NCBI RefSeq assembly: GCF_050920415.1
Contig: NZ_CP169309.1
Direction: 5' to 3' (one strand)
DNA from: Escherichia coli
Lineage (GTDB): Bacteria; Pseudomonadota; Gammaproteobacteria; Enterobacterales; Enterobacteriaceae
DNA length: 64,000 nucleotides
This document shows, one piece after another, positions 4,270 through 29,330 of the stretch; positions within the stretch are counted from its first letter, which is position 1; each line of letters starts with the position of its first letter. Under the pieces are notes generated by a model. The model was not told the DNA's origin. It made no database searches and was given only the letters and a program-made list of their open reading frames with translations. The position numbers and the translations under genes are program-made.

Positions 4270-4851
4270 ATGGCGGTTCAAAAGAATGTTATCAAAGGCA
4301 TACTGGCAGGTACGTTTGCGCTAATGCTGAGCGGTTGTGTTACTGTGCCGGATGCCATTAAAGGCAGCAGTCCCACGCCGCAACAAGATTTAGTTCGGGT
4401 GATGAGTGCGCCGCAGCTGTACGTTGGTCAGGAGGCACGCTTTGGCGGCAAAGTGGTTGCGGTACAAAACCAGCAAGGGAAAACCCGCCTGGAAATTGCT
4501 ACCGTACCGCTCGACAGCGGAGCCAGACCAACTTTGGGAGAACCTTCTCGCGGTCGCATTTATGCCGATGTGAACGGTTTTCTGGATCCGGTAGATTTTC
4601 GTGGACAATTGGTCACGGTAGTTGGACCAATCACCGGTGCGGTTGACGGCAAAATCGGCAACACGCCCTATAAATTTATGGTGATGCAGGTAACGGGTTA
4701 CAAACGTTGGCATTTAACCCAGCAGGTGATTATGCCGCCTCAGCCGATTGATCCATGGTTTTATGGCGGTCGTGGCTGGCCCTATGGCTACGGTGGATGG
4801 GGCTGGTATAATCCCGGCCCCGCGAGAGTACAAACTGTTGTAACTGAATAA
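4270..4851 (+). CDS. yeaY: Slp-family outer-membrane lipoprotein YeaY
   Basis: ORF track 193 aa; signal peptide with lipobox LSGC; synteny. Confidence 0.85.
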
Positions 4852-4873
4852 TTGCTTGTTTTTAAAGAAAAAG

Positions 4874-4900
4874 AAACAGCGGCTGGTCCGCTGTTTCTGC
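4874..4900 (+). terminator. Hairpin terminator downstream of yeaY
   Basis: AAACAGCGG-CTGGT-CCGCTGTTT stem-loop followed by T-rich tract. Confidence 0.55.
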
Positions 4901-4966
4901 ATTCTTACGGTAAAGATAAAAATAAATAGTGACGCGCTTCGCAACCTTTTCGTTGGGTAATCATCA

Positions 4967-4983
4967 AGCTGGTATGATGAGTT
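4967..4983. promoter_or_regulatory. FadR operator-like site AGCTGGTATGATGAGTT in fadD promoter
   Basis: Matches FadR consensus ANCTGGTCNGACNTGTT at most positions; about 70 nt upstream of fadD start. Confidence 0.6.
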
Positions 4984-5055
4984 AATATTATGTTAACGGC
5001 ATGTATATCATTTGGGGTTGCGATGACGACGAACACGCATTTTAGAGGTGAAGAA

Positions 5056-6741
5056 TTGAAGAAGGTTTGGCTTAACCGTTATCCCGCGGACGTTCCGACG
5101 GAGATCAACCCTGACCGTTATCAATCTCTGGTAGATATGTTTGAGCAGTCGGTCGCGCGCTACGCCGATCAACCCGCGTTTGTGAATATGGGGGAGGTGA
5201 TGACCTTCCGCAAACTGGAAGAACGCAGTCGCGCGTTTGCCGCTTATTTGCAACAAGGGTTGGGACTGAAGAAAGGCGATCGCGTTGCGTTGATGATGCC
5301 TAATTTATTGCAATATCCGGTGGCGCTGTTTGGCATTTTGCGTGCCGGGATGATTGTCGTAAACGTTAACCCGTTGTATACCCCGCGTGAACTTGAGCAT
5401 CAGCTTAACGATAGCGGCGCATCGGCGATTGTTATCGTGTCTAACTTTGCCCACACTCTGGAAAAAGTGGTTGATAAAACCGCCGTTCAGCACGTAATTC
5501 TGACCCGTATGGGCGATCAGCTATCTACGGCAAAAGGCACGGTAGTCAATTTCGTTGTTAAATACATCAAGCGTCTGGTGCCGAAATACCATCTGCCAGA
5601 TGCCATCTCATTTCGTAGCGCCCTGCACAACGGCTACCGGATGCAGTACGTCAAACCCGAACTGGTGCCGGAAGATTTAGCTTTCCTGCAATACACCGGC
5701 GGTACCACTGGTGTGGCGAAAGGCGCGATGCTGACTCACCGCAATATGCTGGCGAACCTGGAACAGGTTAACGCGACTTATGGGCCGCTGTTGCATCCGG
5801 GCAAAGAGCTGGTGGTGACGGCGCTGCCGCTGTATCACATTTTTGCACTGACCATTAACTGCCTGCTGTTTATTGAACTGGGTGGGCAGAACTTGCTTAT
5901 CACTAACCCGCGCGATATTCCGGGGTTGGTAAAAGAGTTAGCGAAATATCCGTTTACCGCGATAACCGGCGTTAACACCTTGTTCAATGCGTTGCTGAAC
6001 AATAAAGAGTTCCAGCAGCTGGATTTCTCCAGTCTGCATCTTTCTGCAGGCGGTGGTATGCCTGTTCAACAAGTGGTGGCTGAACGTTGGGTGAAACTGA
6101 CCGGACAGTATCTGCTGGAAGGTTATGGCCTGACCGAGTGTGCGCCGCTGGTCAGCGTTAACCCGTATGATATTGATTATCATAGTGGTAGCATCGGTTT
6201 GCCGGTGCCGTCGACGGAAGCCAAACTGGTGGATGATGATGATAACGAAGTACCACCGGGTCAACCGGGTGAGCTTTGTGTCAAAGGACCGCAGGTGATG
6301 CTGGGCTACTGGCAGCGTCCGGATGCCACTGATGAAATCATCAAAAACGGTTGGCTACACACTGGCGACATTGCCGTAATGGACGAAGAAGGTTTCTTAC
6401 GCATCGTTGATCGCAAAAAAGACATGATTCTGGTTTCCGGTTTTAACGTCTATCCCAACGAGATTGAAGATGTCGTCATGCAGCATCCTGGCGTACAGGA
6501 AGTCGCGGCTGTTGGCGTACCTTCCGGCTCAAGTGGTGAAGCGGTGAAAATCTTCGTTGTGAAAAAAGATCCATCGCTTACCGAAGAGTCACTGGTGACT
6601 TTTTGCCGCCGTCAGCTCACGGGCTACAAAGTACCGAAGCTGGTGGAGTTTCGTGATGAGTTACCGAAATCTAACGTCGGAAAAATTTTGCGACGAGAAT
6701 TACGTGACGAAGCGCGCGGCAAAGTGGACAATAAAGCCTGA
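5056..6741 (+). CDS. fadD: Long-chain-fatty-acid--CoA ligase FadD (561 aa), probable TTG start
   Basis: ORF track 4990..6741; mature N-terminus [10 protein letters not shown] corresponds to TTG at 5056; AMP-binding motif [12 protein letters not shown]. Confidence 0.9.
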
Positions 6742-6760
6742 GCGTTAAGTCAGTCGTCAG

Positions 6761-6787
6761 ACGCCGGTTAATCCGGCGTTTTTTTTG
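6761..6787 (+). terminator. Rho-independent terminator of fadD
   Basis: CGCCGG-TTAAT-CCGGCG stem-loop followed by TTTTTTTT. Confidence 0.75.
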
Positions 6788-6810
6788 ACGCCCACTAAAG
6801 AGAATACAAT

Positions 6811-7938
6811 TTGAATTACCAAATGATTACCACGGACGATGCGCTGGCTTCTTTGTGTGAAGCTGTCCGTGCCTTTCCGGCGATAGCCCTGGATACTGAA
6901 TTTGTTCGTACGCGCACCTATTACCCGCAGCTGGGTCTAATTCAACTTTTCGATGGCGAGCATCTGGCGCTAATTGATCCTCTCGTGATCACCGACTGGT
7001 CACCGCTGAAAGCGATCCTGCGCGATCCGTCCATCACAAAATTTCTCCATGCAGGCAGTGAAGATCTGGAAGTGTTCCTCAATGTCTTTGGCGAATTACC
7101 ACAACCCCTGATTGACACGCAAATCCTTGCTGCCTTCTGCGGACGCCCGATGTCATGGGGTTTTGCTTCCATGGTGGAAGAGTATTCCGGCGTTACGCTG
7201 GACAAGAGTGAATCGCGCACCGACTGGCTGGCCAGACCGCTGACTGAACGTCAGTGTGAATACGCAGCGGCGGATGTCTGGTATCTGTTACCGATCACCG
7301 CAAAGCTTATGGTAGAAACGGAGGCCTCCGGCTGGCTACCTGCGGCGCTGGATGAATGCCGCCTGATGCAAATGCGTCGTCAGGAAGTCGTTGCGCCGGA
7401 AGATGCCTGGCGTGATATCACCAATGCCTGGCAGTTACGCACACGCCAACTGGCCTGTCTGCAACTGTTAGCCGATTGGCGACTGCGTAAGGCGCGGGAG
7501 CGCGATCTGGCGGTGAACTTTGTCGTGCGTGAAGAGCATTTGTGGTCGGTAGCGCGTTATATGCCGGGAAGTTTAGGCGAACTGGACAGCCTGGGCTTAT
7601 CCGGTAGCGAAATCCGCTTTCACGGTAAAACGCTGCTGGCGCTGGTGGAAAAAGCGCAGACATTGCCGGAAGAGGCCTTACCGCAGCCGATGCTTAACCT
7701 GATGGACATGCCGGGTTATCGTAAAGCGTTTAAAGCGATTAAGTCGCTGATTACTGACGTGAGCGAAACACACAAGATCAGCGTCGAATTGCTGGCATCG
7801 CGTCGGCAAATCAACCAGCTGCTGAACTGGCACTGGAAACTGAAACCGCAGAACAATTTGCCGGAGCTGATTTCCGGCTGGCGTGGTGAGCTGATGGCGG
7901 AAGCATTACACAATTTATTGCAGGAATATCCACAGTAA
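6811..7938 (+). CDS. rnd: Ribonuclease D (375 aa), TTG start
   Basis: ORF track; DEDDy 3'-5' exonuclease plus HRDC-like C-terminus; begins at TTG codon. Confidence 0.9.
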   Translation: MNYQMITTDDALASLCEAVRAFPAIALDTEFVRTRTYYPQLGLIQLFDGEHLALIDPLVITDWSPLKAILRDPSITKFLHAGSEDLEVFLNVFGELPQPLIDTQILAAFCGRPMSWGFASMVEEYSGVTLDKSESRTDWLARPLTERQCEYAAADVWYLLPITAKLMVETEASGWLPAALDECRLMQMRRQEVVAPEDAWRDITNAWQLRTRQLACLQLLADWRLRKARERDLAVNFVVREEHLWSVARYMPGSLGELDSLGLSGSEIRFHGKTLLALVEKAQTLPEEALPQPMLNLMDMPGYRKAFKAIKSLITDVSETHKISVELLASRRQINQLLNWHWKLKPQNNLPELISGWRGELMAEALHNLLQEYPQ

Positions 7939-28552: not shown

Positions 28553-29299
28553 GTGACCAAACTCAAACTTCTGGCACTTGGAGTGCTTATCGCAACGTCT
28601 GCAGGCGTAGCGCACGCTGAAGGTAAATTTTCCCTGGGCGCAGGCGTAGGTGTCGTTGAACACCCATATAAAGATTACGATACCGATGTTTACCCAGTAC
28701 CGGTAATCAACTATGAAGGCGATAACTTCTGGTTCCGTGGCTTAGGTGGTGGTTACTACCTGTGGAATGACGCAACGGATAAACTTTCAATTACCGCTTA
28801 CTGGTCGCCGCTTTACTTCAAAGCTAAAGACAGTGGCGATCACCAAATGCGTCACCTGGATGACCGTAAGAGCACCATGATGGCTGGTCTGTCTTATGCT
28901 CACTTTACCCAGTACGGTTACCTGCGTACCACCCTGGCTGGCGATACCCTGGATAACAGCAACGGCATCGTCTGGGATATGGCCTGGTTGTATCGTTACA
29001 CCAACGGTGGCCTGACCGTGACTCCGGGTATTGGTGTGCAGTGGAACAGCGAAAACCAGAACGAATACTATTATGGCGTATCGCGCAAAGAGTCTGCGCG
29101 CAGCGGTCTGCGTGGCTATAACCCGAACGACAGCTGGAGCCCTTACCTGGAGCTAAGTGCCAGCTACAACTTCCTCGGTGACTGGAGTGTTTACGGTACC
29201 GCGCGCTACACCCGTCTGTCTGATGAAGTTACTGACAGCCCAATGGTGGATAAATCCTGGACTGGCCTGATTTCTACCGGGATCACCTACAAATTCTGA
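28553..29299 (+). CDS. mipA: MltA-interacting outer-membrane protein MipA, GTG start
   Basis: ORF track 248 aa; signal peptide, beta-barrel-like sequence ending in aromatic residue. Confidence 0.9.
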   Translation: MTKLKLLALGVLIATSAGVAHAEGKFSLGAGVGVVEHPYKDYDTDVYPVPVINYEGDNFWFRGLGGGYYLWNDATDKLSITAYWSPLYFKAKDSGDHQMRHLDDRKSTMMAGLSYAHFTQYGYLRTTLAGDTLDNSNGIVWDMAWLYRYTNGGLTVTPGIGVQWNSENQNEYYYGVSRKESARSGLRGYNPNDSWSPYLELSASYNFLGDWSVYGTARYTRLSDEVTDSPMVDKSWTGLISTGITYKF

Positions 29300-29330
29300 T
29301 AATGCATCTTTCCAGGGCATTTTGTGCATA

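Follow-up and report, generated by a model that had tools for sequence, protein, structure and literature searches.

The fadD and rnd genes of Escherichia coli, neighbors in the 64,000-nucleotide stretch of DNA analyzed here (the window), both initiate translation at UUG codons, and we infer that their adjacency is a coincidence. The region is the well-characterized yeaY-fadD-rnd locus, and the UUG starts of both genes are already known, having been textbook matter for ≈30 years. We are highly confident in the explanation of the locus as a whole, which comprises a regulated fadD promoter, the two UUG starts, a terminator shared with the small RNA sroD, a translational enhancer upstream of rnd, and an adjacency that carries no meaning of its own. 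Experimental support for this account (the FadD N terminus, the fadD transcription start, and the UUG start and enhancer of rnd) comes from the literature rather than from the present sequence analysis. Because both starts are established for two long-studied genes, the observation itself is of little consequence. The comparative data do, however, cleanly resolve an error in the annotated start of rnd, and they bring out a conserved element in the fadD leader for which the best explanation does not account. The window is 100% identical to NZ_CP169399.1 and ≈97% identical to most other E. coli. A 1-nt indel close to a frameshifted mipA distinguishes it from NZ_CP169399.1. The features discussed below are collected in Table 1.

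Table 1 Features of the yeaY-fadD-rnd locus, in window coordinates
Feature	Position	Strand	Remarks
yeaY terminator-like palindrome, AGAAACAGCGG-CTGGT-CCGCTGTTTCT	4872–4898	+	Terminator scan
Distal FadR operator (site 2), GGCTGGTCCGCTGTTTC	4882–4898		Inside the yeaY palindrome; matches the site-2 oligo of Feng and Cronan 2012
fadD promoter CRP site, AGTGACGCGCTTCGCA	4928–4943	+	Center lies ≈60 nt before the inferred transcription start
Proximal FadR operator (site 1), AGCTGGTATGATGAGTT	4967–4983	+	Conserved in the alignment
ATG opening the longest ORF	4990–4992	+	−22 codons; −10/transcription-start region
Conserved island, GGGGYTGYG-ATG-ACGAC	5014–5033	+	fadD 5′ leader; holds in-frame ATG 5023 (−11 codons)
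fadD Shine-Dalgarno (SD) sequence, AGAGGTGA	5044–5051	+	Ends ≈5 nt before TTG 5056
fadD CDS	5056–6741	+	Long-chain acyl-CoA synthetase, 561 aa; UUG initiation at 5056–5058
sroD small RNA (Rfam RF00370)	6700–6785	+	Last 42 nt of fadD, terminator hairpin, and U-tract
GC hairpin CGCCGG-TTAAT-CCGGCG with U8	6762–6786	+	fadD/sroD intrinsic terminator; terminator scan and fold
Weak rnd SD-like sequence, AAAGAGA	6797–6803	+	7–8 nt before TTG 6811
rnd CDS	6811–7938	+	RNase D, 375 aa; UUG initiation at 6811–6813
Internal ATG (Met5 of RNase D)	6823–6825	+	RefSeq automatic rnd start, 371 aa

The placement of the fadD start at TTG 5056, proposed earlier from the sequence-only reading, agrees with curated annotation, published work, and our comparative analysis. 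The codon is followed by AAG AAG GTT TGG (KKVW) and coincides with the RefSeq start, and the curated K-12 gene is 1686 nt long, that is, the TTG form. Black et al. are reported to have described E. coli K-12 fadD in 1992 as an acyl-CoA synthetase gene with a UUG start and to have determined the FadD N terminus by Edman sequencing. Across 77 enterobacterial loci, fadD opens with TTG in 59 and with GTG in 17, with one further GTG after correction of the frame, and with ATG in none. Outside this main set, TTG is used in Yersinia and in a Serratia-like genome and GTG in the more distant locus L088; in Haemophilus, the aligned position is an ATG with a stop two codons upstream. The distant loci that we fetched through truncated database proteins turned out to be frameshift-ridden assemblies in which fadD is fragmented, and we therefore give no weight to a 1-nt frame difference in L087. 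From +1, the coding periodicity of fadD is 0.13/0.03/0.81. The SD sequence pairs at −11.7 kcal/mol, an energy of −10 kcal/mol or stronger being attained at only 2.9% of the window's NTG triplets, and its AGA GGT is invariant across 65 unique sequences. The leader is also unusually unstructured, the E. coli sequence folding worse than its shuffled counterpart (z = +2.7). Translation of fadD begins at UUG 5056, ≈5 nt past a very strong SD sequence, in a leader free of structure. N-terminal data, which the sequence-only reading had named as the appropriate check, are available for FadD: the EcoGene N-terminally verified set includes the gene with its N terminus at the TTG position, and the false site chosen by start predictors lies 11 codons upstream of the true start.

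The region upstream of this start has the layout of the published fadD promoter. The stem of the yeaY palindrome is conserved across genera in the alignment, with A/G-T/C compensatory variants, and the two FadR operators are separated by 68 bp, equal to the published spacing. The CRP block is nearly invariant (73 unique sequences from 77 loci), and the published oligo for the fadD CRP site matches window positions 4910–4957 (PMC3460868). The published transcription start, at ≈4996, precedes the start codon by 60 bp; a consensus promoter scan near fadD returned a single 9-of-12 match (4982–5011), at odds with that start. The promoter is activated by CRP and repressed by FadR, giving a transcript with its 5′ end near 4996, and the ATG at 4990 belongs to the promoter rather than to the fadD mRNA.

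The rnd gene begins at TTG 6811, again in line with the earlier proposal, with curated K-12 annotation, and with published work. The codon is followed by AAT TAC CAA ATG (NYQM); curated K-12 rnd is 1128 nt long, which is the TTG form, and the crystallized RNase D (1yt3) is the 375-aa form that opens with MNYQ. Of 81 enterobacterial loci, 77 begin rnd with TTG and the other four with GTG, with no ATG. The substitution pattern points to the TTG as well. Codons 2–4 vary at synonymous third positions only (AAT/AAC, TAC/TAT, CAG/CAA), entropies for codons +1 to +3 being 0–0.41 at positions 1 and 2 and 0.87–1.00 at position 3, whereas codons upstream of the TTG vary at all positions and lack periodicity. 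In most loci, there is no in-frame NTG between the TTG and the first upstream stop. According to work attributed to Zhang and Deutscher in 1988/1989, Edman sequencing is said to have placed the N terminus of RNase D at the UUG.

Two alternative start assignments have to be weighed against these placements, and neither holds up. An ATG is a commoner start codon than TTG, and ATG 6823 is the rnd start in all three automatically annotated E. coli genomes sampled, which would yield an RNase D beginning MITTDD instead of MNYQMITTDDALASLCEAVR and would leave the TTG as upstream non-coding sequence. We consider this very improbable. Synonymous-only variation sets in right after the TTG, so the RefSeq start is four codons short; moreover, ATG 6823 has no SD sequence (−0.9 kcal/mol) and is replaced by ATT in one species (L051). 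The automatic RefSeq annotation of the sampled E. coli genomes thus trims four residues from RNase D, a small and correctable error. For fadD, the corresponding alternative is a 583-aa product translated from ATG 4990. The longest ORF (4990–6741) opens with this ATG, and the extension appears in some database entries (P0071). The codon is not a start: it precedes the published transcription start by 6 nt and falls within the −10/transcription-start region. The frame is open from it in only 37 of 76 loci, indels and stops at −15 to −23 breaking it in the remainder; its SD pairing (−3.7 kcal/mol) is at background level; and the verified N terminus of FadD lies elsewhere. The 583-aa FadD is effectively refuted, with next to no probability left to it, and the earlier remark that the ORF track over-extends fadD by 22 codons is borne out.

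Between the two genes lies the hairpin with its U8 tract, which is at once the terminator of fadD and, for rnd, the GC hairpin and U-rich element that precede the SD sequence. All 64 unique sequences keep its six core pairs, among which CG-to-UA and GC-to-AU changes are compensatory. Transcription of fadD would end here, at what would also be the 3′ end of sroD. The sroD annotation is a by-product of our analysis that lies outside the earlier reading: the RNA overlaps the hairpin and U-tract that immediately precede rnd, and cmscan matches it over model positions 1–86 of 86 at 115.2 bits, where the gathering score is 50. Downstream of the hairpin, the SD-like sequence of rnd pairs at only −2.9 kcal/mol, and the AGA at codon −4 is present in 72 of 73 unique sequences. 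For rnd, the scan for consensus promoters gave no convincing match. The literature names rnd as a gene with a UUG start that needs a U-rich translational enhancer. Removal of the U-tract reportedly abolishes rnd translation, and changing the UUG to AUG is said to raise expression, both observations being credited to Zhang and Deutscher. Translation of rnd starts at UUG 6811, behind a weak SD sequence; on the basis of the published work, it depends on the upstream U-rich tract, and the UUG holds RNase D at a low level.

The suggestion that the weak start codons down-tune both genes therefore fares differently for the two. For rnd, it is documented, by the U-rich enhancer citation and by the title of a 1989 paper by Zhang and Deutscher, which reads "Evidence for translational regulation"; the rnd SD sequence is weak as well. 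For fadD, we infer from the alignment that the UUG may have been selected to limit expression: the start is TTG or GTG and never ATG in 76 loci, which fits selection for a weak codon. That codon, however, stands behind an invariant and very strong SD sequence (top ≈3% of NTG triplets in the window) in an unusually unstructured leader, so that initiation on balance may be weak or strong.

It remains to consider whether the pairing of two UUG genes has any significance. The sequence-only reading was right that both genes start with UUG and that they are consecutive; a meaning behind this finds no support, as a terminator separates them and chance suffices. Among the 64 intact annotated genes of the window, 56 start with ATG, seven with GTG, and one (fadD) with TTG, and correction of the rnd start brings the TTG genes to two. 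Because TTG starts make up 1.9% of an N-terminally verified E. coli set, two in 64 is the ordinary rate. Given two such genes among 64, the probability that they are adjacent is ≈0.03 (63 of 2016 pairs), and a 4300-gene genome is expected to hold about 1.5–4 adjacent TTG-TTG pairs by chance (p = 0.019–0.03). The adjacency is thus mildly unusual locally, yet expected somewhere in any genome (1.5–3.9 pairs genome-wide). A functional link between the two starts, for example co-regulation in which UUG initiation at both genes responds to the condition of the translation machinery, could draw on the fact that fadD and rnd are the only TTG genes of the window and that both starts are conserved as non-ATG. 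Several observations stand in its way beyond the chance expectation. The terminator between the genes is conserved, the initiation contexts are opposite (a strong SD sequence for fadD and a weak one for rnd), the functions of the two proteins are unrelated, and toggling of the start to GTG has occurred independently for the two genes, in different genera. We regard such a link as highly improbable and retain the reading of a coincidental adjacency.

A second in-frame ATG in the fadD leader, at 5023, was overlooked by the earlier note. It is present in all 76 enterobacterial loci, always 11 codons before the start, in an open frame, and with GGGG 5 nt upstream, and it sits in a discrete conserved block whose flanks are variable. 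A Serratia-like genome retains the element as GAGG-N5-ATG at −11; the island is absent from Yersinia, Haemophilus, and one more distant gammaproteobacterium. The ATG might truly initiate translation, either yielding a minor 572-aa FadD proteoform or tuning how often the UUG is used, as a site where ribosomes load or compete. In addition to its conservation and its fixed distance, it lies within the mRNA if transcription starts at ≈4996; the third position is in excess across codons −10 to −5 (0.35/0.32/0.81), with a permutation p of 0.035 for one frame, in a test that spans six codons only and has little force when all three frames are counted; and a predictor published in 2007 scored ATG 5023 at 0.66 and the true start at 0.013, fadD being listed as a candidate multi-start gene. 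Against these points, the verified FadD N terminus is at the TTG position, SD pairing at ATG 5023 is −5.9 kcal/mol and hence weaker than that at the TTG, and the four-fold-degenerate third positions of ACG ACG are nearly invariant, which points to constraint on the nucleotides rather than on the protein. Yersinia lacks the ATG altogether, and in-frame stops lie just before the fadD start in Yersinia, Haemophilus, and L088. On balance, initiation at ATG 5023 seems to us unlikely, if worth keeping in view, and we are a shade more doubtful still that the GGGG-N5-AUG at 5014–5025 would represent a second, conserved initiation site. Two other readings of the island were tried and rejected. An RNA structure is not indicated: alifold gives −3.4 kcal/mol and supports no helix, and an Rfam scan matched no family at the island. 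An out-of-frame, 14-codon upstream ORF from ATG 5001 would have its stop hit by the variable leader positions, which are non-synonymous in that frame. The text of a Ribo-RET preprint mentions neither fadD nor rnd, and the TRAINSPOTTER and Salmonella riboproteogenomics supplements contain no entries for either gene. The fadD leader carries a sharply conserved SD-like element and AUG.

Compared with known systems, the locus differs little from its K-12 counterpart. The fadD gene of the window is the same gene as K-12 fadD (b1805; EcoGene EG11530, with a verified start), sharing its 561-codon frame, the 68-bp spacing of the FadR sites, the CRP site, and the 60-nt leader measured from the published transcription start; no functional difference separates the two, in DNA that is ≈97% identical to that of most E. 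coli. Some literature matches for RNase D and UUG in fact concern pcnB, which we keep solely as an analogy. It parallels rnd in encoding an enzyme of RNA metabolism that is harmful in excess and kept scarce by a UUG and a weak ribosome-binding site; it is, however, a separate gene elsewhere in the genome, and the text consulted mentions no U-rich enhancer for it. The rnd gene itself is that of Zhang and Deutscher (1989, 1992; b1804), with the same UUG and weak SD sequence and, ahead of the latter, the same GC hairpin followed by eight U residues, and the E. coli leader shows no difference from their system. In most other genera, the U8 tract is interrupted (TTTTTTAT) and the hairpin is retained. 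The sroD match (RF00370; Vogel et al. 2003, as cited in PMC5874903) is full length and consists of the fadD 3′ end and the terminator, so that the small RNA and the rnd leader element have the hairpin and U-tract in common.

Both UUG starts, that of the acyl-CoA synthetase gene fadD and that of the RNase D gene rnd, are real and conserved. For fadD, the sequence-only reading placed initiation at TTG 5056, and this coordinate proves exact. RefSeq annotates the same start in every genome examined, in agreement with the curated 1686-nt gene of K-12 MG1655. The comparison set comprised 80 orthologous fadD-rnd loci of Enterobacteriaceae, drawn from other species and genera, with rnd 75 to 99% identical. 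At the aligned codon, 59 loci have TTG and 17 have GTG, with a further GTG once an alignment offset was corrected; neither ATG nor a non-start codon occupies this position in any aligned Enterobacteriaceae locus. The preceding Shine-Dalgarno sequence has a pairing energy of -11.7 kcal/mol with the 16S 3' end; only 2.9% of the ATG, GTG, and TTG triplets in the window reach -10. Downstream of the TTG, the mean column entropy of 0.13, 0.03, and 0.81 at codon positions 1, 2, and 3 is a coding signature. Black et al. (1992) reportedly gave both the FadD Edman sequence and the TTG initiator.

Features of the fadD-rnd region in window coordinates
Feature	Position	Sequence	Remarks
FadR sites of fadD	4882-4898 (site 2, distal) and 4967-4983		exactly 68 bp apart
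Leader block	5014-5033	GGGGYTGYG-ATG-ACGAC	fadD 5' leader; conserved, with sharp boundaries
fadD Shine-Dalgarno	before TTG 5056	AGAGGTGA	invariant across aligned loci
fadD start	5056-5058	TTG, then AAG AAG GTT TGG	K K V W after the initiator
sroD small RNA (RF00370)	6700-6785		115 bits; overlaps last 42 nt of fadD
Hairpin and T-tract	6762-6786	CGCCGG-TTAAT-CCGGCG, eight T residues	between fadD and rnd
rnd start	6811-6813	TTG, then AAT TAC CAA ATG	N Y Q M after the initiator

Distant orthologs agree on the FadD N terminus; these loci come from frameshift-prone assemblies, and only their substitutions were relied upon. The start is TTG after AGGAG in Yersinia (stop 17 codons upstream), TTG in a Serratia-like genome, GTG after AGGAG in a more distant gammaproteobacterium (stop 4 codons upstream), and ATG at the aligned position in Haemophilus (stop 2 codons upstream). 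At one distant enterobacterial locus (L087, 1460-1510), an upstream ATG opens an 11-codon ORF, out of frame with fadD, whose TGA stop overlaps the TTG initiator (TTGA). This overlap is suggestive of coupling, but the assembly is riddled with frameshifts, and a sequencing error may account for the 1-nt difference.

The longest ORF across fadD opens at ATG 4990, 66 nt upstream of TTG 5056, and the earlier suspicion that it over-extends the gene by 22 codons is borne out. Given the spacing of the FadR sites and a match of the published CRP-site oligo to positions 4910-4957, the published promoter map transfers to the window, with transcription starting near 4996. ATG 4990 lies six bases upstream of this point and thus outside the transcript. 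It also lacks a Shine-Dalgarno sequence (-3.7 kcal/mol) and is open and in frame in only 37 of 76 loci, being shifted elsewhere by indels, with stops 15 to 23 codons upstream. The 583-residue frame is therefore an ORF-calling artefact. The distal FadR site lies inside a palindrome (4872-4898) that resembles the yeaY intrinsic terminator. Its stem covaries across genera while the loop, with part of the FadR half-site, varies, so that conservation here may come from the terminator rather than from FadR binding. A 2022 review describes the position of the distal site near -100 as odd for a repressor and untested in vivo.

Every one of 76 loci keeps a nearer in-frame ATG, at 5023 in the leader block, at a distance of exactly 11 codons ahead of the TTG or GTG start, and the Serratia-like genome has GAGG-N5-ATG at the same distance. 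We found neither a conserved RNA structure nor an Rfam match at this block. That it serves as a functional initiation or ribosome-loading site seems unlikely: variation across codons -10 to -5 leans mildly towards the third position (0.35/0.32/0.81; p = 0.035 for one frame) and the block resembles a ribosome binding site, but its pairing is weak (-5.9 kcal/mol), the four-fold-degenerate sites of the following ACG ACG are near-invariant, and the block is missing from Yersinia, Haemophilus, and more distant taxa. A main role in translation is also disfavoured by the verified FadD N terminus. The Hon-yaku paper, which describes its EcoGene dataset as 862 proteins with N termini confirmed by sequencing, includes fadD (EG11530) in a list of genes for which the predictor chose a start other than that of EcoGene. 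The false site there is "+11" codons, so that an ATG stands 11 codons upstream of the verified start; the offset identifies this ATG as 5023 and the verified start as TTG 5056.

The rnd start at TTG 6811 is likewise supported. The curated K-12 gene (1128 nt, 375 residues) has the TTG form, and the crystallised enzyme (PDB 1yt3) is the 375-residue MNYQM... form. All three automatically annotated E. coli genomes sampled begin rnd at the ATG equivalent to 6823 (1116 nt, 371 residues), four codons short. That ATG lacks a Shine-Dalgarno sequence (-0.9 kcal/mol) and is ATT in one species. The codon at 6811 is TTG in 77 and GTG in 4 of 81 readable loci and ATG in none of them. Codons 2 to 4 vary only synonymously (AAT/AAC, TAC/TAT, CAG/CAA), save an N-to-T change in one clade, and variation in the ten preceding codons touches every position; in most loci, no in-frame NTG occurs back to the first upstream stop. 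The synonymous-only codons, the TTG/GTG conservation, and the poor context of ATG 6823 together place the start at TTG 6811, and the automatic RefSeq start looks like a systematic four-codon truncation.

The plus-strand order is yoaA, tsaB, yeaY, fadD, and rnd, followed by yeaX and yeaW on the minus strand. Across bases 4850-6950, the window matches strain MFDS1022581 (NZ_CP169399.1) at 100% identity and nearly all of the 5,425 other complete E. coli genomes at ~97%. Identity is at least 99% to only 4 of the 5,425 matching genomes and 95 to 99% to 5,418 others, which indicates a relatively divergent lineage. In the otherwise identical strain, mipA (window ~28580-29300) is annotated as a frameshifted pseudogene; the window and that strain's record differ around there by a 1-nt indel, since annotated coordinates downstream are offset by one base.

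Both starts stand, but there is no sign that their being consecutive matters. After the rnd correction, 2 of 64 window genes start with TTG, the usual rate, and 1.5 to 3.9 adjacent TTG pairs are expected per genome by chance. The two genes are transcribed as separate units, their functions are unrelated, and one has a strong and the other a weak Shine-Dalgarno sequence. The adjacency is probably a coincidence, and both UUG starts were already known.

The hairpin between the genes is the fadD terminator. Its six core pairs are unbroken in 64 unique sequences; at two pairs both bases change in compensation (CG to UA, GC to AU), and at two a single base changes in a wobble-compatible way. The rnd literature counts this hairpin and U-tract within the rnd leader and translational enhancer, and the sroD 3' end coincides with it. 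The small RNA may be either a 3' fragment of fadD or an rnd leader that was terminated there.

The proposed translational down-tuning is documented for rnd and only inferred for fadD. The complete lack of ATG at either start in about 80 loci fits selection that disfavours strong start codons, because TTG or GTG becomes ATG by a single mutation. The fadD picture is mixed: its UUG is paired with a Shine-Dalgarno sequence stronger than the optimum of Vimberg et al. (roughly -7.7 kcal/mol) and with a leader that is less stably folded than its shuffled counterparts (z = +2.7). For rnd, down-tuning is the accepted explanation, given its weak Shine-Dalgarno sequence (AAAGAGA, -2.9 kcal/mol), its UUG, and published experiments. 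In a reporter system, AUG and GUG exceed UUG six- to eight-fold in strength. The literature consulted cites rnd as a UUG-initiated mRNA with a U-rich translational enhancer.
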